Part shown: piece after piece, positions 3,612 to 39,249 of the stretch | How positions within the stretch are numbered: the first letter of the stretch is position 1 | How the letters are laid out: each line of letters starts with the position of its first letter | DNA from: Candidatus Omnitrophota bacterium | Lineage (GTDB): Bacteria; Omnitrophota; Gorgyraeia; Aquiviventales; Aquiviventaceae | Assembly: GCA_016206565.1 (NCBI GenBank) | Contig: JACQRG010000061.1 | Location: 1-39,350 of the forward strand | Direction: 5' to 3' | Length of the DNA stretch: 39,350 nt | Made by a program: the position numbers and the translations under genes | The notes under the pieces: generated by a model | Database searches by the model: none | Told to the model about the DNA's origin: nothing | Seen by the model: the letters and a program-made list of their open reading frames with translations, nothing else

Positions 3612-4847
3612 ATGACACACCACAGGTTACTGCCGGATCGCACCGGCCATTTCGGGCCGTTCGGGGGCACCTTTGTGCCTGAGACGGTCATGGCCGCGCT
3701 GGCCGATTTGGAGCACGCCTGGGCGCGCGCGCGGCGGGACCCGGCCTTCCGCCACCGGCTGCGCTCGCTCCTGGAGGAGTACGCCGGCCGGCCCACGCCC
3801 CTGTACTTCGCCCGGCGCTTGAGTGCGGCCCTCGGCGGGCGGGCGCGGATTTACCTCAAGCGCGAGGACCTGCTCCATACCGGCGCGCACAAGATCAACA
3901 ACGCCCTGGGCCAGGCGCTGCTGGCGGTGCGCATGGGCAAGTCCCGCCTCATCGCCGAGACGGGTGCTGGCCAGCACGGGGTGGCGACCGCGACCGCCGC
4001 CGCGCTCTTCGGCCTGGCCTGCGAAGTCTTCATGGGCGAGGAGGACATGCGCCGGCAGGAGCTCAACGTGGTGCGGATGCGCCTGCTCGGGGCGCGCGTC
4101 ACGCCGGTGCGCAGCGGCACGAAGACCCTGAAGGACGCCTGCAACGAGGCGATCCGCAACTGGGTCACGACCGTGCGCACCACCCACTACTGCATCGGCT
4201 CGGTCGTCGGGCCGCATCCGTACCCGCAGCTGGTCCGGGATTTTCAGTCGGTCATCGGGCAGGAGGCCCGCCGGCAAATCCGGCAAGCCGCGGGCCGGCT
4301 GCCGGACCTGCTCATCGCCTGCGTCGGCGGCGGCTCCAACGCCATCGGGCTCTTCCACGCGTTTGCGCGCGACCGGCGGGTGCGCATGATCGGCGTGGAA
4401 GCCGGCGGCACCGGCCTGCGGCCTGGCCACCATGCGGCGACGCTGGTCAAGGGCCGGCCCGGCGTGCTGCACGGGGCCAAGAGCCTGCTGCTGCAGGACC
4501 GGTTCGGCCAGGTGCTCTCGACGAAGTCCATCGCGGCCGGATTGGATTACCCCGGTGTGGGGCCGGAGCATGCCTACTACCAGCTTCGCGGCCGGGCCGA
4601 GTATGTCGCCGTCGGGGACCGGCAGGCGCTGGCTGCCTGCGAGCTGCTGGCGCGCACCGAAGGCATCCTGCCGGCGCTGGAGCCGGCGCATGCGCTGGCC
4701 TACCTGGCGCGGATCGCCCCGCGCCTGAAACGGGGCAGCGTGGTGATCCTCGGTCTCTCGGGACGGGGGGATAAGGACGTGCACACGATGGCCCAGCATC
4801 TGACGCGGGCCCAGGGACGCGATGGAACCGCTGCGCGCCGCGTTTGA
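3612..4847 (+). CDS. trpB: Tryptophan synthase beta chain
   Basis: [13 protein letters not shown], the PLP-lysine motif [24 protein letters not shown] and GGGSNAIG. Start chosen at ATG 3612 so that the N-terminus has normal TrpB length. Confidence 0.95.
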
Positions 4848-22574: not shown

Positions 22575-23426
22575 GTGTGGTGGCTGGCCGCGCTTCTGGG
22601 AACTGCCTGTGTGGGCTGGGGCGTGTTGGCTACGCGGCGCATCCTCTACCCCAAGCACCGGCCGGTCCTCGCGCCACAGCCGTTACCCTCCTATACGACC
22701 CATCTGTTGCGCGCCGCGGATGGCGCAGCCTTCGACGTCTGGCGCCTGCGTCCCGCCGAGGCGCGCGCCCACCTGGTGATGTGCCATGGCTACTACGCGA
22801 ACCGCTACCAGGTGCTGGGTGCGGCGCAGGGACTGCGTGAGCGCGGCTACGATGCGCTGCTGCTGGAGCTGCGGGGGCACGGCTCGCGCCCGGGTCCCTG
22901 CACCCTGGGGCTGCGCGAGGCGCAGGACGTGAGAACGATTCTGACATGGCTGCGCCAGGAGGAGGCCTCACGCCTGCCCGTCGCCCTGCTGGGCTTCTCG
23001 ATGGGGGCGGCGGTGGCCTGCCAGGCCGCGGCGCGCTATCCGCAGGTCAAAGCGGTCGTCACGGACTCGGTCTACGCCTCGTTCTTCGACGTGGTGCGCA
23101 TCAACATCCGCCGGCTCTACCGGCTGCCCGCGGTGCCGTTTGCTTGGCTGACCTGGGCCGCGCTGCAGGCGCGCTTCGCCGGCCGGCTGGGGGCGGCCGA
23201 CCCGGCGGCCTTGGCCCCGGCGCAGCATGCGTCGCTGCTGGCCATCCAGGGCGGGGCGGACCGGCATGTCACGCTGCCGGCGAGCGAACGGTTCTTTGCG
23301 CGATGGGCCGGCCCGAAGGAGCGATGGGTGGAGCCCCGCGTGGCGCACGTCGGCATGTATAAGCGGGACCCGCGCGAGTACTGCGACCGCGTGGCGGCGT
23401 TCCTGGACCGGGCGGTGGGGGGATGA
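22575..23426 (+). CDS. Membrane-anchored alpha/beta-fold hydrolase
   Basis: GTG start 6 nt after the PilZ stop. N-terminal TM segment, HG oxyanion region (VMCHGY), nucleophile elbow GFSMG, and later GGADRH / H near the C-terminus. It is a paralog of the ORF at 38362. Confidence 0.8.
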   Translation: MWWLAALLGTACVGWGVLATRRILYPKHRPVLAPQPLPSYTTHLLRAADGAAFDVWRLRPAEARAHLVMCHGYYANRYQVLGAAQGLRERGYDALLLELRGHGSRPGPCTLGLREAQDVRTILTWLRQEEASRLPVALLGFSMGAAVACQAAARYPQVKAVVTDSVYASFFDVVRINIRRLYRLPAVPFAWLTWAALQARFAGRLGAADPAALAPAQHASLLAIQGGADRHVTLPASERFFARWAGPKERWVEPRVAHVGMYKRDPREYCDRVAAFLDRAVGG

Positions 23427-28891: not shown

Positions 28892-30735
28892 GCGCCGTGC
28901 TAGGCAAGGGCTCGCCCGAGGCGCTTGAGGTCACCGAGGCCGCGCGCCAAGCGGAGTGGCAGTATCCAAGTTTCGTCGCCGGACTGTTCATGGGGCGGGT
29001 CCGCCAGGACCTGGTGTTCCCGTGCCCGGAGCAGCCTGAAGACGACCGGCGCGCCGGCGACGCGTTCCTCGCCGAGCTCGACGCCTTCCTGAAAGCCCAG
29101 GTGGACCCGGACGAGATTGACCGCACCGGCGAGCTGCCCGCCTCGGTCATCCAGGGCCTGGTCCGGCTGGGCTGCTTCGGCATGAAGATCCCCAAGGAGT
29201 ACGGCGGCCTGGGCCTCTCGCAGGCGAACTACGCCCGGGTCCTGACGCTGCTGGGAAGCCACTGCGCGTCCACCGCGGTGTGGCTCAGCGCCCACCAGAG
29301 CATCGGCGCCCCGCAGCCGCTGATGCTCTTCGGCACCGAGGAGCAGAAGCGCGCCTACCTGCCGCGCCTGGCACAGGGCACCATCTCCGCCTTCGCGCTG
29401 ACCGAGCCCGGCGTGGGCTCGGACCCGGCCAATATGCTCACGACCGCCACCCCCATCGAGGGCGGGGAACTCTACCTGCTCAACGGCGAGAAGCTCTGGT
29501 GCACGAACGGCCCGGTCGCCGACGTCGTGGTGGTCATGGCCCGCACGCCGTCGGTCATGGCAGGCGGCAAGGAGCGCAAGCAGATCACCGCCTTCATCGT
29601 CGAGAAGGCGATGCCGGGCGTCGAGGCGGTCCATCGGTGCGAGTTCATGGGCTTGAAAGGCATCCAGAACGGCGTGCTGCGCTTCACCAACGTGCGGGTG
29701 CCGAAGGGCAACATCATCTGGGGCCCGGGCCTGGGGCTGAAGCTCGCACTCGTGACGCTCAATGCAGGCCGCATCGCGATCCCCGCGGCGAGCGTTGGGG
29801 GTGCCAAGCGCTGCCTGCAGATCGTGCGGGGCTGGGCCAAGGAGCGCAAGCAGTGGGGCGGGCCGATCGGCAAGCACGAGGCGGTGGCGGCGAAGATCGG
29901 CGAGATGGCCGCCGCGACCTTCGCGATGGACGCCATGGTGACTATCACCTCGGCCCTGGTGGACCGCAAGAGCATTGACATCCGCCTGGAGGCGGCCATT
30001 GCCAAGCTGTACTGCTCGGAGGCTGCCTGGCGCATCGTGGACGACACGCTGCAGATCCGCGGCGGGCGCGGCTACGAGACCGCCGCGTCGCTGCGCGGGC
30101 GGGGGGAGCCGGGCATCGGCGTCGAGCGCATGCTGCGCGATTCCCGCATCAACCTCATCATCGAGGGCACGAGCCAGATCATGCGCCTCTTCATCGCCCG
30201 GGAGGCGCTGGATGCGCACATGCGCCTGGTCGGGGAGCTGCTGAGCCCGCACGGGGCGCCGGCCAAAAAGCTCGCCGCCGCGCTGCGCGCCATCATCCAC
30301 TACGCCGTGTGGTATCCCCGCCAGTGGCTGTTCTGGAGCGGCTGGCCGCGGTATGCGCATCTGCATCCGCGCCTGGCCGGCCACATGCGGTTCGTGGAGC
30401 GGACCAGCCACCGGCTGGCGCGCGCCCTCTTCCACGGGGCGGTCCGACATCAAACGCGCCTGGCCTATCGCCAGCAGCTGCTCGGGCGGCTGGTGGACGT
30501 CGGCGCGGAGCTCTTCGCCATGGTCGCGGCCTGCAGCAGGGCCCAAGCGCTCATCCGGCTGCAGCCGTCGGAGCAGAGCCCCGTCGAGCTGGCGGATGTG
30601 TTCTGCCGGCAGGCGCGCCGCCGCGTGGACAGCGCGCTGCGCTTAGCCGGCGACAATGAGGATCGGGCCGTCTATCAGATCGCGCAAGACGTCCTCGGCG
30701 GCCGCTATGAGTGGTTGGAGGAAGGCATTGTCTGA
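28888..30735 (+). CDS. Very-long-chain-type (VLCAD/ACAD9-like) acyl-CoA dehydrogenase with C-terminal extension
   Basis: ATGA overlap. SFVAGLFMGRVRQDLVFPCPE, GLGLSQANYARV, FALTEPGVGSDPA, LNGEKLWCTNG, IAKLYCSEAAWRIVDDTLQIRGGRGY and IIEGTSQIMRLFIA align by eye along the whole VLCAD architecture. The product is ~615 aa. Confidence 0.9.
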   Translation: MSAVLGKGSPEALEVTEAARQAEWQYPSFVAGLFMGRVRQDLVFPCPEQPEDDRRAGDAFLAELDAFLKAQVDPDEIDRTGELPASVIQGLVRLGCFGMKIPKEYGGLGLSQANYARVLTLLGSHCASTAVWLSAHQSIGAPQPLMLFGTEEQKRAYLPRLAQGTISAFALTEPGVGSDPANMLTTATPIEGGELYLLNGEKLWCTNGPVADVVVVMARTPSVMAGGKERKQITAFIVEKAMPGVEAVHRCEFMGLKGIQNGVLRFTNVRVPKGNIIWGPGLGLKLALVTLNAGRIAIPAASVGGAKRCLQIVRGWAKERKQWGGPIGKHEAVAAKIGEMAAATFAMDAMVTITSALVDRKSIDIRLEAAIAKLYCSEAAWRIVDDTLQIRGGRGYETAASLRGRGEPGIGVERMLRDSRINLIIEGTSQIMRLFIAREALDAHMRLVGELLSPHGAPAKKLAAALRAIIHYAVWYPRQWLFWSGWPRYAHLHPRLAGHMRFVERTSHRLARALFHGAVRHQTRLAYRQQLLGRLVDVGAELFAMVAACSRAQALIRLQPSEQSPVELADVFCRQARRRVDSALRLAGDNEDRAVYQIAQDVLGGRYEWLEEGIV

Positions 30736-32524
30736 CCGTCCGCCGGCCGACACGCTGCCGGCGCTCTTCGTCCAGCGCGCCGCCGCGTCAGGCCCCAAAC
30801 CCCTGTTTCTGGTCAAACGCGACGGCGCCTACCGGCCGATGTCCTGGCGGCAGGCTGCCGATGACGTCTGCGCGTTGGCGGCGTTCCTGCTGGAGCAGGG
30901 GGTCGCGGCCGGCGACCGGGCCGCGATTCTCTCGGAGAATCGTCCGGAATGGGGCATCGGCGACCTGGCCATCCAGTCCGTCGGCGCTTGGACGGTCCCG
31001 CTGTATCCCAGCCTGACGGCGCAGGACATCCACGGCATCTGCCGCGACTGCGAGCCGGTGGCGTGCGTCGCATCCACGGCAGAGCAGGCGCGCAAGATCG
31101 CCGAGATCCGCGCCGGCGTGCCGTCGCTGCGCGTCGTCATCGCTATGGACGGGGGGGCGGGCACGGTCTCCTGGGCCGACGCGCTGGCCAGGGGGCGGGC
31201 TGCGCTGCCGGCGCGCCGGGAGGAGCTGGACGCGCGCCGAAACGCCCTGCGCCCCGGCGACACGGCGACGCTGATCTACACCTCCGGCACCACGGGCGAG
31301 CCTAAAGGCGTCATGCTCTCCCACCGGAATTTCCTCTCCAATGTCCGGGCGAGCCTTGACGCCATCCCCATCTGCGGCGACGACCTGCACCTCTCGTTCC
31401 TGCCGCTGTGCCACGTGTTCGAGCGGATGGCCGGCTGGTACTTGATGCTCGACGTCGCAGCGACGGTGGCCTACGCCGAGTCCATGGACACCATCCCGGA
31501 CAACATGCGGGAGGTGCGCCCGACCGTGATGCTGGGCGTGCCCCGGTTCTTCGAGAAGCTCTACGCGCGCATCCAGGAGGCGCTGCGGCAGATGCCGCCT
31601 GCCAAGCAGCGGCTGGCGCGGTGGGCGATCCGGGTCGGGCAGCGGGCGGCGCAGGCGCGGGAGCAGCGCCGGCCCGTTCCGCCCGGGCTGGCCCTGCAGG
31701 TGTGGTTGGCCGACCGCCTCGTCCTGGAGAAGTTCCGCCGGCGCCTCGGCGGGCGGCTGCGCTTCTTCGTCTCCGGCTCAGCGCCCCTCTCGGCGGACAT
31801 CGGCCGGTTCTTCAGCGGCCTTGGTATCACCATCATCGAGGGCTACGGGCTGACCGAGACCTCGCCGGTGATCGCGGTGAACCGGCTCTCCCGTCCGAAG
31901 TTCGGCACGGTCGGTCCGCTCATTTCCGGGGTGGAGGTGCGCATCGCCGACGACGGAGAGATCCTGACGCGCGGCCCCCACGTGATGCAGGGCTACTACC
32001 GCAAGCCGGAGGAGACCGCGGCGGTGATCACGGACGGCTGGCTGCACACCGGCGACGTCGGGCATCTGGACGGCGACGGCCACCTGGTCATCACCGACCG
32101 CAAGAAGGACCTCATCAAGACCGCCGGCGGCAAATTCGTTGCGCCCCAGAAGCTCGAGAACCTGTTCGTCACCGACCCGTACGTCAGCCAGGCGTTCGTG
32201 TACGGCGACCGGCAGCGGTACTGCGTGGCACTCGTGGTGCCGAACATGGCCCGCCTCCGGGAATACGCCGCCTCGCAGGGCATCGCCGCCGCCGGCCCGG
32301 CCCAGCTGGTGCAGGATGCGCGCATCCGCGAGTTCTACTGGCAACGGGTCCAAGAGCGGCAAGGCGGCCTGGCGTCGTTCGAGCAGGTCAAGGCCATCGC
32401 TCTGCTGGACCAGGAGTTCACCCAGGCCGCCGGAGAATTGACCCCCACGCTGAAGGCCAAGCGCGGCGTGATCGCGCAGCGCTACGCCGAGGCGCTGCGC
32501 CGGCTCTACGAGCAGCCGGCGTGA
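30707..32524 (+). CDS. Long-chain-fatty-acid--CoA ligase (AMP-dependent synthetase)
   Basis: AMP-binding motif IYTSGTTGEPKGVMLSHRN, then EGYGLTETS, GWLHTGDVG and DRKKDLIKTAGGKFVAPQ. The start is either ATG 30707 (29-nt overlap) or TTG 30728, which is preceded by GGAGGAAGG. Confidence 0.9.
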   Translation: MSGWRKALSDRPPADTLPALFVQRAAASGPKPLFLVKRDGAYRPMSWRQAADDVCALAAFLLEQGVAAGDRAAILSENRPEWGIGDLAIQSVGAWTVPLYPSLTAQDIHGICRDCEPVACVASTAEQARKIAEIRAGVPSLRVVIAMDGGAGTVSWADALARGRAALPARREELDARRNALRPGDTATLIYTSGTTGEPKGVMLSHRNFLSNVRASLDAIPICGDDLHLSFLPLCHVFERMAGWYLMLDVAATVAYAESMDTIPDNMREVRPTVMLGVPRFFEKLYARIQEALRQMPPAKQRLARWAIRVGQRAAQAREQRRPVPPGLALQVWLADRLVLEKFRRRLGGRLRFFVSGSAPLSADIGRFFSGLGITIIEGYGLTETSPVIAVNRLSRPKFGTVGPLISGVEVRIADDGEILTRGPHVMQGYYRKPEETAAVITDGWLHTGDVGHLDGDGHLVITDRKKDLIKTAGGKFVAPQKLENLFVTDPYVSQAFVYGDRQRYCVALVVPNMARLREYAASQGIAAAGPAQLVQDARIREFYWQRVQERQGGLASFEQVKAIALLDQEFTQAAGELTPTLKAKRGVIAQRYAEALRRLYEQPA

Positions 32525-34581
32525 TGGAGGCCTTCTCCGAAGCCGAAGGCTCCTGGGGCCTGCCCGCCTCCGGCCAACGGCTCTTCGCGCGCCTCCTCAT
32601 CCCTGAGCCGTCGCAAGCCCTTCTTATCTTGGTGCATGGGTTCGGCGACCATGGCGGCCGCCACCTGGGCATGGCGCGGTGGCTCGCGCAGCAGGGCCTC
32701 GCCGTCGCCGTCCCGGATTTGCCTGGGCATGGCCGATCCGAAGGCCCCCGCGGACATCTGCCCTCCCTGGCGGCCTGCGTTGAGGGCTTGTCGCTGGCGG
32801 CGCGCCAGCGCTGGATGGCGGATGCCGGCCAGCCGCGGTTCAGCATCTTCGGCCATAGCTTCGGCGGGCTGGTGGCGGCCTCCTGGGTCCTGCGCCGGCC
32901 GGAGAGCCTTCATCGGGCGGTGCTGCAGGCGCCGCTGTTTGAAGCGGGCTTTCCCATCCCGGGCTGGAAGCGGGCCGCTGCCGCGGCACTCGGGCGCTGG
33001 TGGCCCTCGGCGCGCCTCTCGGTCGGTCTGGATCCTCAGTACCTGAGCCATGATCCGGCCGTGGTCGAGGCCTACCGGCGGGATCCCTTGGTGCAGCATG
33101 CGATGAGCGCCGGCACCTACCGTGATATGCTCCAAACCCGCGACGAGGCGCTGGCCCAGGCCCCTCAGGTGCGTGTTCCCGTCCTGCTGCTGTGCGCCGG
33201 AGATGACCGGGTTGTCTCCACGCCCGCGGCCCAGCGCTGGTTCGCCGGCCTGCGAGGCGAGAAGCGCGTCCAGCTGTTTCCCGGCGCCTACCACGAGCTC
33301 CACCACGAGCCGGTGCGTGAGCAGGCCTGGAAGCTGGTGAAAGAGTGGATCGTGGCCCTGGGGCTGCTGGTCGCCTGCGCCGGGACCGGCTGGGCGCAGC
33401 CGCAGGAGGGCGCGTCCGGCGCCACCGACTGGCCCGCGATGATCACCAAGCTGCGGGGCGAGGTGCACGACCACCCGGGGTTCGGCCGCCTGCGCGAGCA
33501 GCTGGCCACCGCGCATAACAACTACGGGGTCCAGCTGGCCTCAGCAGGGCAGTGGCGGCTGGCCCAGGAGCAGCTGCAGCAGGCCATCGAGCTCGACGGC
33601 GGCAACGAGCAATTCCGCCAGAACCTGGCCAGCGTTTACCTGCGCGAGGCGCAGCAGCTCTACGAGCAGCGCCAGGGCCGCGACGCCAGGACGCGGGCCG
33701 AGGAGGCGGTGAAGGTGAACCCGCAGCTCGCACAGGGCTATGCGCTCATCGGGCAGATCGAATATGAGGACCAACGCCTGAAGGAGGCCAGGGCGGCCTG
33801 GCAGCAGGCGCTGCAGCTGGATCCGGCGTTGACCGAACTGGCCGACCGGCTCTCCCGCCTCGATGAGGAGCTGCCGGTGGAGTCCGGCTTCCAGCGCATC
33901 TCGCAGGCGTTTTTCGATCTGCGCTACGAGGAACAGTTGGAGCGTCCGGTGGGATTTGACATCCGCGATGCGCTGCTGGAAGCGCGGCGCACCGTCGGCG
34001 GCGATTTCGCCTATTGGCCCAAGCACAAGATCGTGGTGCTGTTGTACAGCGCGGAGATCTTCCGCCAGCTGCGCCAGGAAACGCCGGAGTGGGTCGCGGG
34101 GCAGTACGACGGGAAGATCCGCATCCCGCTGCCGAATACGCACCTCGACGAGGGGATGGTCAAGCAGATCCTCTTCCACGAGTACACCCACGCCGTGGTG
34201 CACGACCTGGCACGGGATAAGTGCCCGGTGTGGTTCAACGAGGGGCTGGCGGAGCACGAGGGCGCCCGGCACGGCCCGCGCCGGCTGGAGCGGCTCATCG
34301 AGGCGTCGGCGACCAACGCTTTCATTCCGTGGGAGGAGCTGGACGGCGCCTTCTCGATGGCCCTGCCGGTCGAGCACGTGTCGCTGGCCTATCAGCAATC
34401 CCGCAGCATCGTGGCCTATCTGGTGGAGCGCTACGGGTTCTGGCGCATCCGCCGCCTCCTGGAGGCCCTTGCCGGCGGCGACGCGCTGCTGGAGGCCATG
34501 AGCCGCGAGTTCCGGACCAAGCCGGCCCGGCTCGAAGCCCAGTGGCGCGCCTGGCTGCCCGGCTTCCTGAAGTCCTCATGA
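32524..34581 (+). CDS. Apparent fusion: lysophospholipase/monoacylglycerol-lipase-type alpha/beta hydrolase + lipoprotein-like TM segment + TPR repeats + HExxH (peptidase MA-like) domain
   Basis: TGATG overlap with the ligase gene. The hydrolase part has LVHGFGDHGGRH, GHGRSEG, GHSFGG and YHELHHEP. The junction reads KEWIVALGLLVACAGTGW. TPR-like helices follow, then the metalloprotease motif HEYTHAVVHD ... FNEGLAEHE. There is no stop codon between the parts (685 codons). Confidence 0.75.
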   Translation: MEAFSEAEGSWGLPASGQRLFARLLIPEPSQALLILVHGFGDHGGRHLGMARWLAQQGLAVAVPDLPGHGRSEGPRGHLPSLAACVEGLSLAARQRWMADAGQPRFSIFGHSFGGLVAASWVLRRPESLHRAVLQAPLFEAGFPIPGWKRAAAAALGRWWPSARLSVGLDPQYLSHDPAVVEAYRRDPLVQHAMSAGTYRDMLQTRDEALAQAPQVRVPVLLLCAGDDRVVSTPAAQRWFAGLRGEKRVQLFPGAYHELHHEPVREQAWKLVKEWIVALGLLVACAGTGWAQPQEGASGATDWPAMITKLRGEVHDHPGFGRLREQLATAHNNYGVQLASAGQWRLAQEQLQQAIELDGGNEQFRQNLASVYLREAQQLYEQRQGRDARTRAEEAVKVNPQLAQGYALIGQIEYEDQRLKEARAAWQQALQLDPALTELADRLSRLDEELPVESGFQRISQAFFDLRYEEQLERPVGFDIRDALLEARRTVGGDFAYWPKHKIVVLLYSAEIFRQLRQETPEWVAGQYDGKIRIPLPNTHLDEGMVKQILFHEYTHAVVHDLARDKCPVWFNEGLAEHEGARHGPRRLERLIEASATNAFIPWEELDGAFSMALPVEHVSLAYQQSRSIVAYLVERYGFWRIRRLLEALAGGDALLEAMSREFRTKPARLEAQWRAWLPGFLKSS

Positions 34582-36314
34582 AACAGCATGAAATCGCGGC
34601 GATCTTCTCGCGGATGGCCGACCTGCTGGAGTTCAAGGGCGACAACCCGTTCCGGATTCGCGCCTACCGGCGCGCGGCCCAGAACCTCGAGAGCTTCAGC
34701 GGCGACCTGGAGACGCTGGGGGCGGCCGGGCGGCTGCGGGAGATCTCCGGCATCGGCGCGGACCTGGCCGAGAAGATTCAGGAGTACTGCGCGACCGGCG
34801 CGATCCAGGCCTTCGAGCGGCTCCAAGCCTCGGTGCCGCCCGGAGTGCTGCAGCTGCTCGAGGTGCCCGGGCTCGGCCCCAAGACCGCCAAGGTGCTCTC
34901 GCAGCAGCTGAAGGTGACGACCCTCGGACAGCTGGAGGACGCGGCGAAGCGCCACCGGCTGCAGACGCTGCCGGGCTTCAAGGCGCGCAAGGAGGAGAAC
35001 TTGCTCAAGGGCATCGCCATCGTGCGGCGCGGCCGGGAGCGCATGCACTTAGGGATCGCGCTGCCGCTGGCCAACGAGCTGCTGGCCTTCCTGCGCCGCG
35101 CGCCAGGTGTAGCCCGCGCGTCCGCCGCCGGCAGCCTGCGCCGGATGAAGGAGACCATCGGCGACCTCGACCTGCTGGTTGCCTCGGCCAAGCCGGCCGG
35201 GGTCATGCGCGCGTTCACGACCGCGCCGTTCTGCGCTCGGGTCCTGGCGGCGGGGACGACCAAGGCTTCCATCTTGACCCAGGACGGGCTCCAGGTGGAC
35301 CTGCGGGTGGTGGAGCCGGAGTGCTTCGGCGCGGCGCTGCAGTATTTCACCGGGTCCAAGGAGCACAACGTCCAGATCCGCGAGCTGGCGGCGCGGCGCG
35401 GCTTGAAGGTCAACGAGTACGGCGTCTTCAGGGCGGCCGGCAACCGGCGCCTGGCGGGCAGGGAAGAGGCGGACGTCTACAAGGCGCTGGGCCTGCCCTG
35501 GATCCCGCCGGAGCTGCGCGAGGCGCAAGGAGAGGTGGCGGCGGCCCAGGCCAAGCGCCTGCCCTCGCTCATCGAAACCGGAGACCTGCAGGGCGATTTC
35601 CACCTGCACACGACCTGGTCCGATGGCAGCAACCGGCTGGAGGAGATGGCCCAGGCCGCGCAGCGGCGCGGCTACCGCTATGCGGCGATCTGCGACCATT
35701 CGCCGTCGCTGAAAGTGGCGCACGGCATGAGCGCAGCGCGGCTGCGCCAGCAGATGCGCGAGATCCAAGCGCTCAACAAGCGCCTCAAGCGCCTGCGGCT
35801 GCTGATGGGCGCTGAGGTAGACATCCTCGGCGACGGCTCCATGGACTACCCGGATGAGGTCCTCGCCCAGCTGGATTTCGTCGTCGGCTCCATCCACAGC
35901 GGGTTTGGCCAGGGCAAGACCAGGCTGACCCAGCGCCTGCTCGCGGCCATGCGCAACCCGCATGTCACCGTCATCGGCCATCCGACCGGCCGGCTGATGG
36001 GCCAGCGCGAGGCGTATGAGGTTGACCTCGAGGCGGTCGCGCGGGCCGCGCGGGACACCGGCACGGCCCTGGAGATCAACGCCTACCCCAGGCGCCTGGA
36101 TTTGTGCGACGCCGCGGCGCGCCGGGCCAAGGACCTGGGCGCCATGCTGGCCATTTGCACGGACAGCCACAGCGTCGAGCAGCTGGAGCAAATCACGTTC
36201 GGGCTGGGCGTGGCGCGCCGGGCCTGGTGCGAGCCGGCGCATGTGCTCAATACCCGCAGCCTGGCCGCGCTGCAAGCCTGGGTGGCGCGCAAGCGGCGCC
36301 GGGTGGCCCGGTGA
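34578..36314 (+). CDS. polX: Family X DNA polymerase with C-terminal PHP phosphoesterase domain
   Basis: ATGA overlap. FKGDNPFRIRAYRRAA, HhH motifs (ISGIGADLAEKI; VPGLGPKTA), GSLRRMKETIGDLDLLV and PHP histidines (DFHLHTTWSDG, CDHS). Confidence 0.9.
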   Translation: MKQHEIAAIFSRMADLLEFKGDNPFRIRAYRRAAQNLESFSGDLETLGAAGRLREISGIGADLAEKIQEYCATGAIQAFERLQASVPPGVLQLLEVPGLGPKTAKVLSQQLKVTTLGQLEDAAKRHRLQTLPGFKARKEENLLKGIAIVRRGRERMHLGIALPLANELLAFLRRAPGVARASAAGSLRRMKETIGDLDLLVASAKPAGVMRAFTTAPFCARVLAAGTTKASILTQDGLQVDLRVVEPECFGAALQYFTGSKEHNVQIRELAARRGLKVNEYGVFRAAGNRRLAGREEADVYKALGLPWIPPELREAQGEVAAAQAKRLPSLIETGDLQGDFHLHTTWSDGSNRLEEMAQAAQRRGYRYAAICDHSPSLKVAHGMSAARLRQQMREIQALNKRLKRLRLLMGAEVDILGDGSMDYPDEVLAQLDFVVGSIHSGFGQGKTRLTQRLLAAMRNPHVTVIGHPTGRLMGQREAYEVDLEAVARAARDTGTALEINAYPRRLDLCDAAARRAKDLGAMLAICTDSHSVEQLEQITFGLGVARRAWCEPAHVLNTRSLAALQAWVARKRRRVAR

Positions 36315-38361: not shown

Positions 38362-39249
38362 GTGCTGCTCACAGTTCTTGAAGTCGCCTTCCTCGCCGTC
38401 TTCTGGTCCTGGGCGCTCGCCGCCCTGGTCTTCCTGCGCAACACGCTCCTGCCCAAGCTCCCCCTGCAGCGCTCGCCCTCCGAGGTGGGCCTGGAGAGCG
38501 ACACCGTGCGATTTCCCGCAGCTGATGGGTTAGCGCTTGAGGGCTGGCGCGTGCCGGCGGCCGACCCTGAGGCGCCGTGGCTGATCCTCTGCCACGGGCT
38601 GGGTGCTAACCGGGCGGACCTGCTGGAGGTCGCCGCGGACCTGCATACACAAGGCTTCAACCTGCTCCTCTTCGACTTCCGCGGGCATGGCGGCAGCGCA
38701 GGCCGGGCGACCTCGTTCGGCTGGACCGAACAGATGGACCTGCAGGGTGCGCTGGCCTACCTGGGCGCCCAGCCGGAGATCCCGGCGCGGCTCTATGGCG
38801 TGTACGGCAGCTCCATGGGAGGGGTCGTAGGGCTGCTGGTGGCCGGGGAAGACGAGCGCATCGGGGCCATCGCCACCGACAGCACCTACGCCGATCTGGA
38901 CGAGTCCCTGAGGCGCCACCTGCGGCTGCTGTATCCGATCCTGCCGGCCGTGCCGTTCGCCTGGTACATCCTCTGGACCTACCGGCTGCGGTTCGGCCTC
39001 TGGCCGAGGCAGGTCTCGCCCAGGCAGGCGGCCGCCAAGCTCGGGGGACGGCCCTTGCTGGCCATCCAGGGGGAGTTGGACGTCCGGCTGCCGGCCGATG
39101 CAGCGCAGATACTGGCCAAGGCCGCAGGTGCTCGAGGCGAGGCATGGGTCGTGGAAGGTGCTGTGCACCTGGAAGGATCGGCGCTTCATCCAGGCGCCTA
39201 TGGGGATCGGTTGAGCACGTTCTTTAGGGGGGCGTTACAGGCCTACTGA
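38362..39249 (+). CDS. Membrane-anchored alpha/beta-fold hydrolase (paralog of 22575-23426)
   Basis: GTG start, N-terminal TM segment, LILCHGLGANR, DFRGHGGS, nucleophile elbow GSSMGG, and a shared segment DS.YA....RR.L.LLY..LPAVPFAW also seen in the ORF at 22575. Confidence 0.8.
   Translation: MLLTVLEVAFLAVFWSWALAALVFLRNTLLPKLPLQRSPSEVGLESDTVRFPAADGLALEGWRVPAADPEAPWLILCHGLGANRADLLEVAADLHTQGFNLLLFDFRGHGGSAGRATSFGWTEQMDLQGALAYLGAQPEIPARLYGVYGSSMGGVVGLLVAGEDERIGAIATDSTYADLDESLRRHLRLLYPILPAVPFAWYILWTYRLRFGLWPRQVSPRQAAAKLGGRPLLAIQGELDVRLPADAAQILAKAAGARGEAWVVEGAVHLEGSALHPGAYGDRLSTFFRGALQAY

Follow-up and report, generated by a model that had tools for sequence, protein, structure and literature searches.

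A monoacylglycerol-lipase-type hydrolase fused to a TPR-gluzincin through a retained signal peptide in an Omnitrophota lipid operon

Introduction

Monoacylglycerol lipases (MGLs) such as Rv0183 of Mycobacterium tuberculosis, human MGLL and the Palaeococcus MGL (Pfam family Hydrolase_4, PF12146) are known as stand-alone enzymes, soluble or peripheral. The tetratricopeptide repeat (TPR) gluzincins of the Peptidase_MA_2 family (PF13485) are uncharacterised secreted proteins of Omnitrophota, Geobacteraceae, Chitinispirillaceae, Nitrospirota and other groups, the typical members of which begin with a cleavable Sec signal peptide of their own; our literature search on Peptidase_MA_2/PF13485 found nothing relevant on the family. 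Here, we describe a gene (P0001) in which proteins of these two types are read in a single frame. It is located in a 39,350-nucleotide stretch of an uncultured Candidatus Omnitrophota bacterium from groundwater (contig JACQRG010000061.1 of assembly GCA_016206565.1), which is called the window below. The first 275 residues of the window protein resemble the MGL family in sequence, in fold, in the GHSFG elbow and in the Asp/His triad, and its operon of lipases and β-oxidation genes fits such an enzyme; unlike in the known members, however, the C-terminus continues into a hydrophobic segment and a 390-residue predicted periplasmic module. These last 390 residues are a regular member of the TPR-gluzincins (50–75% identity to stand-alone Omnitrophota proteins and about 30–35% to those of other phyla), except that the signal is internal and comes after what is predicted to be a folded cytoplasmic enzyme. 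The gene is a real fusion through the retained signal peptide of the peptidase, and such fusion has probably occurred more than once.

A metalloprotease with TPR repeats is also known from Escherichia coli, where BepA (YfgC) is a periplasmic M48 enzyme with a TPR domain that serves outer-membrane protein quality control. The combination of a zinc metalloprotease and TPR repeats in the periplasm is the one predicted for the window protein, but BepA belongs to family M48 and not MA_2, its domain order is reversed and it has no fused cytoplasmic enzyme; this is a likeness without demonstrated homology, which suggests a role in envelope-protein quality control or processing for the TPR-gluzincin. 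As for signal peptides inside a polypeptide chain, the FbcH cytochrome b–c1 precursor of Bradyrhizobium is a polyprotein with an internal signal peptide, and few natural bacterial cases with a soluble cytoplasmic enzyme are known to us. In the core–E1 region of hepatitis C virus, the upstream part, cytoplasmic or in the membrane, ends in the signal peptide of the exported downstream part, and after cleavage by signal peptidase this peptide anchors the upstream part (PMC5402940). Core–E1 and FbcH have the same arrangement as is proposed below for the window protein if it is cut at its GWA/QP motif, although their partners are unrelated to those of the window and the cleavage in the window is predicted from sequence. 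A literature search for bacterial internal-signal polyproteins returned viral cases only, and one on Omnitrophota with lipase and β-oxidation returned nothing relevant.

Results and discussion

Two intact domains in a single frame

The gene is a single open reading frame (ORF) that encodes, in this order, the hydrolase, the hydrophobic segment, the TPR repeats and the gluzincin domain (Table 1). An initial annotation made from the sequence had described a frame that stays open from a lysophospholipase-type hydrolase into a TPR and HExxH peptidase, and the ORF, its Pfam domains and the junction as read all bear this out.

The hydrolase domain matches Hydrolase_4 at residues 29–263 (E = 3.8e-60, 203.6 bits for a cut-off of 27). 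A phmmer search against the PDB returned the Palaeococcus MGL (PDB entry 6qe2; E = 3e-35), M. tuberculosis Rv0183 (PDB entry 6eic; E = 7e-29) and human MGLL (E of about 2e-22), with alignments extending to query residue 275–276. The AlphaFold model, in which the predicted local distance difference test score (pLDDT) is mostly above 85 across residues 1–277, has the α/β-hydrolase fold with an MGL-type cap and superposes on Rv0183 with a target-normalised Foldseek TM-score of 0.87–0.88 and on human MGLL with 0.80–0.85. The catalytic triad consists of the nucleophile Ser112 in GHSFG (codon 32857–32859), Asp229 in G(D)DRVV and His257 in YHELHHE, and its three columns are conserved in all 14 aligned hydrolase orthologues. 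The N-terminus carries no signal peptide, and the NCBIfam profile of lysophospholipase L2 gave only 41 bits, far under its cut-off of 362. The N-terminal domain is thus identified by homology as an MGL-type hydrolase, for which cleavage of monoacylglycerols or lysophospholipids is predicted. It also ends where such enzymes normally end, as initially proposed: orthologues encoded by a separate gene finish with W-x-L and zero to nine further residues, i.e. 2–12 residues after the Trp equivalent to Trp275, and then have their stop codon.

The second part starts with an all-helical TPR region and ends with the Peptidase_MA_2 domain, for which the Pfam match (residues 547–678, 52.7 bits, E = 6e-14) lies above the gathering score of 32.4. 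This profile match agrees with the reading of the HEYTH…NEGLAEHE region behind the TPR repeats as a gluzincin. The zinc motif HEYTH (34177–34191) contributes His552, Glu553 and His556, and the third ligand is Glu573 in NEGLAE (34237–34254, the NEG starting at 34237), with the spacing HEYTH-x16-E; these four residues are invariant in 30 sequences from several phyla. A sequence-profile search of the PDB with the alignment of the TPR-peptidases found TPR proteins only and no solved peptidase homologue. When modelled alone, the gluzincin domain reaches a pLDDT of 87.7 and its nearest folds are all gluzincins, namely the M9 collagenases (ColT, ColG and ColH), M1 peptidases (IRAP, ERAP1 and PepN) and M61, albeit with weak structural matches (Foldseek TM-scores of only 0.45–0.56, E = 4e-4 or weaker). 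As a side observation, three relatives of 587–590 residues (P0090, P0092 and P0093) have a duplicated N-terminal TPR block, with two matched stretches ahead of the MA_2 domain and a normal signal peptide before it.

The junction is built from a signal peptide

At the junction, the window protein reads YHELHHEPVREQAWKLVKEW, then the hydrophobic segment IVALGLLVACAGTGWA and then QPQEGASGATDWP, which begins with QPQEG. The core of this segment can be matched, one residue at a time, to signal peptides of stand-alone orthologues, such as IAVLVGVWCASGAGA/QP in P0018 (locus L001), from which we conclude that the linker is a former signal peptide: in IVALGLLVACAGTGWA, the ancestral Sec signal peptide of the peptidase survives as its h- and c-regions, which now lie inside the chain. 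The hydrophobic core IVALGLLVACAG is followed by small residues at positions −3 and −1 (G-W-A/QP), as expected for signal peptidase I. On the other hand, the segment is neither N-terminal nor preceded by a positively charged N-region, as it follows 275 hydrolase residues and the N-region is deleted; it would therefore be usable only as an internal signal or as a signal-anchor. In the AlphaFold model, two confident domains are joined by a low-confidence linker (residues 281–298, pLDDT of about 41) and the predicted TM-score is 0.47, which corresponds to no fixed relative position of the domains in the model. Such low confidence in the linker is the usual look of signal peptides and not of stable transmembrane helices.

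This design recurs in three further Omnitrophota lineages. The fused junctions read KEW-IVALGLLVACAGTGWA/QP in the window, RDW-ILNVVVALGLVILLTAPAISG/EP in locus L003, AAW-SLAAVMALALASSAVA/EPP in L005 and RDW-VLQVGLLCLLWLSPPLAA/QAEE in L006. In all four, W-x-L/V is directly followed by a hydrophobic core and a small-x-small site, in different sequences, and the hydrolase tail, the initiator Met of the peptidase and the charged N-region are missing. In loci where the two genes are separate, the geometry of the junction varies: in L001 the ATG of the peptidase lies inside CAA-TGG of the hydrolase, the TGG being the conserved Trp codon (a 16-nucleotide overlap in another frame), in L004 the genes overlap by ATGA behind a G-rich Shine–Dalgarno sequence, and in L016 both are in the same frame with one TAA between them. 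On this comparison, the event that produced the fusion looks like a deletion of several dozen bases and not a point mutation of the stop codon.

Table 1. Features of the fused gene and of its two neighbours in the window
Feature	Position	Strand	Basis or remark
Fused gene P0001	32524–34581	+	Single 685-codon ORF; ATG at 32524, TGA at 34579–34581
MGL/lysophospholipase-type α/β-hydrolase domain, residues 1–275	32524–33348	+	Pfam, PDB matches, Foldseek
In-frame GTG codons 33313, 33337 and 33352	33313–33354	+	Candidate internal starts
Hydrophobic segment IVALGLLVACAGTGWA, residues 276–291	33349–33396	+	Aligns with signal peptides of stand-alone orthologues
LVAC lipobox-like tetrapeptide, residues 282–285	33367–33378	+	Fits [LVI][ASTVI][GAS]C, by hand
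Strain variant C>T, Thr288Ile	33386	+	In the hydrophobic segment; one run (X2) of four; frame kept
Putative signal peptidase I site GWA/QP	33396/33397	+	Aligns with GAGA/QP, AAA/QP and VAA/QP of stand-alone orthologues
TPR region, about residues 300–463, all-helical	33421–33912	+	Pfam TPR_2/TPR_11/TPR_16 at 330–440; AlphaFold helices 303–463
Peptidase_MA_2 gluzincin domain, about residues 464–685	33913–34578	+	Pfam PF13485
Upstream long-chain acyl-CoA synthetase gene	30656–32524	+	ORF list, Pfam; stop overlaps the start of the fused gene
Downstream PolX-PHP polymerase gene	34578–36314	+	Pfam; shares ATGA with the end of the fused gene (start on stop)

Separate and fused orthologues

A search of a large protein database gave about 75 close relatives of the window protein. 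Three types are fused, namely P0003 (681 residues, locus L005), P0004 (701 residues, L003) and P0005 (687 residues, L006), which are 51–53% identical to the window protein over the full length; P0004 is represented by two 701-residue copies from two metagenome-assembled genomes (MAGs). About 70 are stand-alone TPR-peptidases of 400–460 residues with their own N-terminal signal peptide. Of the 18 Omnitrophota loci that contain a hydrolase, 14 encode it and the peptidase as two genes, in the same order, and ten further metagenome loci have a stand-alone, unfused peptidase gene. Five more loci (L007, L009, L012, L015 and L020; at about 3900–4100 in each) lack the hydrolase gene and have the TPR-peptidase directly after the acyl-CoA synthetase. 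The two parts of the window protein are therefore separate adjacent genes in related genomes, the hallmark of a Rosetta-stone fusion. Taken as a question of separate or fused genes, the comparison with orthologues gives a divided answer: most have separate genes with a stop, but three other lineages share a clean fusion. P0005 was the only full-length match among 1.84 billion cluster representatives, and a scan of JGI metagenome contigs found no relative closer than 60%. A long ORF in locus L083 was considered as a further fusion and rejected as a chance open frame.

In the four fused forms, the catalytic residues and every family-invariant column are intact in both domains, and the peptidase parts (55–66% identity) are no more diverged than unfused ones. 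The number of events was estimated from pairwise identities only, in what is nearly a star-like radiation (61–73%) of low resolution. By this measure, the nearest neighbour of each fused genome, for the peptidase part as for the acyl-CoA synthetase, is an unfused genome: L009, itself without a hydrolase gene, for L005 (68% for the peptidase and 73% for the synthetase), L004 (66%, peptidase) and L009 (71%, synthetase) for L003, L001 (64%, peptidase) and L014 (68%, synthetase) for L006 and, among these loci, L001 (58%, peptidase) and L007 (68%, synthetase) for the window. The closest relative of the window peptidase part anywhere is P0089, with 75% identity. It is a stand-alone protein with its own signal peptide MRRTLQRALGTLLAVALGPGLLFA/EP (starting MRRTLQR), encoded 234 nucleotides downstream of the preceding gene. 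Since this closest relative is unfused, the fusion in the window appears to be younger than the split from the P0089 lineage and independent of the other three; recurrent fusion in Omnitrophota is likely from these comparisons.

Several irregularities were seen in the same loci. The peptidase of L009 has a signal peptide (MAHALLIALFLVG…) without a positively charged N-region. L021 (4031–4838) and L022 (4073–5229) have the peptidase gene broken across two frames, and the PolX gene is split in L013 (4638–6418) and L022 and present as fragments in L012 (5277–5612); these splits are frameshifts, pseudogenes or MAG assembly errors.

Proposed export of the fusion and alternative explanations

We consider it probable that P0001 is a genuine Rosetta-stone-type fusion of two neighbouring genes that were translationally coupled and stood at the end of a lipolysis/β-oxidation operon. 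The probable product is a bitopic protein of the inner membrane, its lipase on the cytoplasmic side and its TPR-protease in the periplasm. Such an arrangement of cytoplasmic lipase, hydrophobic segment and periplasmic protease had been one of the two possibilities raised initially and is the best supported reading. In the proposed scenario, a short deletion would have removed the last few codons of the hydrolase with its stop and, on the side of the TPR-gluzincin, the start codon together with the charged N-region of the signal peptide, leaving the hydrophobic core and the small-x-small cleavage motif in frame. The 275-residue hydrolase would be made first, fold and stay in the cytoplasm. Residues 276–291 would then act as an internal signal-anchor in the N-in/C-out orientation, with Lys269 and Lys273 on the cytoplasmic side and the acidic QPQEGASGATD on the far side, and would carry the TPR and zinc-peptidase part across the inner membrane via Sec. 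The product would be either an uncut bitopic membrane protein or, if cut at GWA/QP, a lipase tail-anchored on the cytoplasmic face together with a free periplasmic protease. A core of only 12 residues and a small-x-small site kept in all four fusions make cleavage of the fusion by signal peptidase I plausible. The two forms would differ in diagnostic peptides: the junction-spanning tryptic peptide EWIVALGLLVACAGTGWAQPQEGASGATDWPAMITK for the uncleaved form and the semi-tryptic peptide QPQEGASGATDWPAMITK for the cleaved form.

A more far-reaching version, to which we give only tentative credence, is that of a bacterial mini-polyprotein which has evolved repeatedly. A cut by signal peptidase I at GWA/QP would free the protease, while the retained signal peptide would serve the lipase as a tail anchor and keep it on the cytoplasmic membrane face, near its lipid substrates; selection would thus have recycled a signal peptide as a membrane anchor at least two to four independent times in Omnitrophota. 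Should the internal signal peptide still be cut, the fusion would be one of the rare natural examples in bacteria of a signal peptide that serves again as a tail anchor.

Some points weigh against the main reading. The 12-residue hydrophobic core (14 residues between two Trp) resembles a signal peptide more than a typical 20-residue anchor, which makes stable anchoring uncertain; topology, export and cleavage are all derived from sequence rules. The independence of the four fusions is taken from raw identities in a near star-like radiation, and L003, L005 and L009, the last without a hydrolase, may go back to a single event. Finally, the fused state is rare, with four lineages against more than 80 unfused orthologues in all, which would also fit a tolerated accident. 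In that case, the junction deletion would be neutral or slightly harmful, without adaptive value, and the C-terminal part may be poorly exported and decaying. The fairly recent age of the event, given that the closest relative of the window is unfused, the abutting or overlapping gene ends, which ease such deletions, and the mutability of the locus (the peptidase is split in two loci and the hydrolase gene lost in five) agree with an accident. Yet we regard it as quite unlikely: the catalytic and invariant residues are intact on both sides of all four junctions, the frame has been kept although the fused lineages have diverged to about 52–61% identity, the L003-type copies are found in two MAGs, and the hydrophobic core and small-x-small site have been retained at every fused junction.

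Another explanation is that one frame gives two products, a GTG start at 33313, 33337 or 33352 adding an exported peptidase to the full-length protein or replacing it, possibly as a lipoprotein cut at LVA/C. Two products from one frame, with the internal start at 33337 or 33352, had been the other initial proposal; we judge this explanation unlikely. The three in-frame GTG codons lie just upstream of the hydrophobic core, and L005 and L006 also have in-frame GTG codons upstream of theirs. A start at 33313 would give MREQAWKLVKEWIVALGLLVAC, with a charged N-region and Cys285 at position 22, within the 15–35 residues of the lipobox rule (applied by hand); a start at 33337 would give MKEWIVALGLLVAC, with the Cys at position 14, and one at 33352 would place it at position 9 and leave no N-region. 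However, GTG is a common Val codon at such GC content, and none of the three is preceded by a convincing Shine–Dalgarno sequence at the proper spacing: there is a purine run only 3 nucleotides upstream of 33313, GGAAG likewise 3 nucleotides upstream of 33337, and AAGAG 6 nucleotides upstream of 33352. This is not decisive, since many genuine starts in these genomes likewise have a weak Shine–Dalgarno sequence or none. A promoter/terminator scan of the fused gene found no internal promoter-like site and nothing inside the gene. In the fused gene of L003, moreover, no ATG, GTG or TTG lies in frame between the catalytic His and the midpoint of the hydrophobic core, so an internal start cannot work there and export of that protein must take place in the fused form. 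The lipobox carries little weight either. The lipoprotein-like label given to this region is right insofar as LVAC fits the pattern, but by hand only three of 19 family members do so (the window protein, P0006 and P0073); in eight the signal region is devoid of Cys, and in the remaining eight the Cys stands behind a disallowed −1 residue or too near the N-terminus, so that the Cys is not conserved. The feature common to the family is A/G-x-A/G before Q/E-P, a signal peptidase I site. The TPR-gluzincin family thus appears to be basically exported by Sec and signal peptidase I, and Cys285 of the window may be incidental.

An assembly or sequencing artefact, with a base missing or a stop lost at 33330–33360, had also been envisaged, given that the window comes from a MAG and that most orthologues have a stop here. 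It is now extremely improbable. Positions 33100–33600 are covered with zero gaps or indels by Logan contigs from four groundwater-metagenome runs; these are four samples of one study, one of which may be the source sample, and contigs drop rare variants, the agreement concerning the consensus and not minority alleles. One run carries a co-occurring strain variant (Table 1). The unfused relatives differ from the window by a whole N-region and a hydrolase tail and not by one base, and the same architecture is found in three other lineages assembled by other groups. The long ORF is biology and not a MAG assembly error, and annotation pipelines should neither split nor flag it.

Genomic context and wider distribution of the TPR-MA_2 module

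The genuine fusion favoured above is the second-to-last gene of a conserved lipolysis/β-oxidation block. The genes follow each other in the order α/β-hydrolase, cNMP-patatin, thiolase, 3-hydroxyacyl-CoA dehydrogenase, enoyl-CoA hydratase, acyl-CoA dehydrogenase, acyl-CoA synthetase, fused gene, PolX and Era. The ATG of the fused gene shares one base with the TGA of the acyl-CoA synthetase (TGATG, within GTGATGG). In the Omnitrophota loci L001–L023, the order acyl-CoA synthetase, hydrolase, TPR-peptidase, one optional gene and PolX is kept, and the synthetase gene is present in all 22 loci for which the upstream flank was recovered. The fusion is a natural Rosetta-stone link between an MGL-like enzyme and an uncharacterised family of predicted periplasmic TPR-gluzincins, the genes of which are adjacent throughout Omnitrophota. 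It suggests that the two act in the same process, be it turnover of the envelope or of lipids or digestion of scavenged lipid and protein.

In other lineages, the TPR-MA_2 module is often found behind other membrane-embedded or cytoplasmic modules. It follows a Ste24/HtpX-like membrane protease of the M48 type in P0161, P0178, P0186 and P0193, which have two metalloproteases in one chain, a GT2 glycosyltransferase and a hydrophobic block in P0202, and DUF3634 in P0098. These proteins share the C-terminal module with the window protein at 30–43% identity but have different N-terminal partners, none of them a hydrolase of the window type; the topology deduced for P0202 is that of the window protein, with a cytoplasmic enzyme, the membrane and a periplasmic module. 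An arrangement running from cytoplasm through membrane to periplasm therefore recurs, and the module seems to behave as a promiscuous periplasmic add-on. The initial view that a bitopic fusion and a double product would both be unusual was overstated in view of these proteins. The fusion is within known types (Rosetta-stone fusions, signal-anchor proteins and TPR-metalloproteases), mildly unusual but not a new system.

Outside Omnitrophota, a TPR-MA_2 homologue (31–34% identity) directly follows a Hydrolase_4-type α/β-hydrolase gene in two Chitinispirillaceae genomes (L025, 2793–4996; L038, 2066–5107), with a CDP-alcohol phosphatidyltransferase gene divergently upstream. We rejected this hydrolase as an orthologue of that of the window because it has no significant BLASTP similarity to it; only the hydrolase–peptidase pairing is therefore shared. 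In Geotalea, Nitrospirota and others, the TPR-MA_2 gene has different neighbours. The module seems to work at the envelope beside lipid-handling enzymes.

Three further observations concern the neighbouring genes. The window contains two more Hydrolase_4-type α/β-hydrolase genes, one at the head of the lipid operon (22575–23426) and one near the end of the window (38362–39249), so that at least three paralogues of this fold lie inside 17 kb of the genome. The acyl-CoA synthetase ORF, as called from the ATG at 30656, shares 80 nucleotides (30656–30735) with that of the acyl-CoA dehydrogenase, which stops at 30735; as homology of the synthetase to orthologues begins only at about residue 29–32, the true start of this gene is probably further downstream. 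Lastly, proteins of 860–900 residues from distant organisms (P0078–P0082) are fusions of an AMP-binding acyl-CoA synthetase with Hydrolase_4, i.e. at the other junction of the same gene trio.

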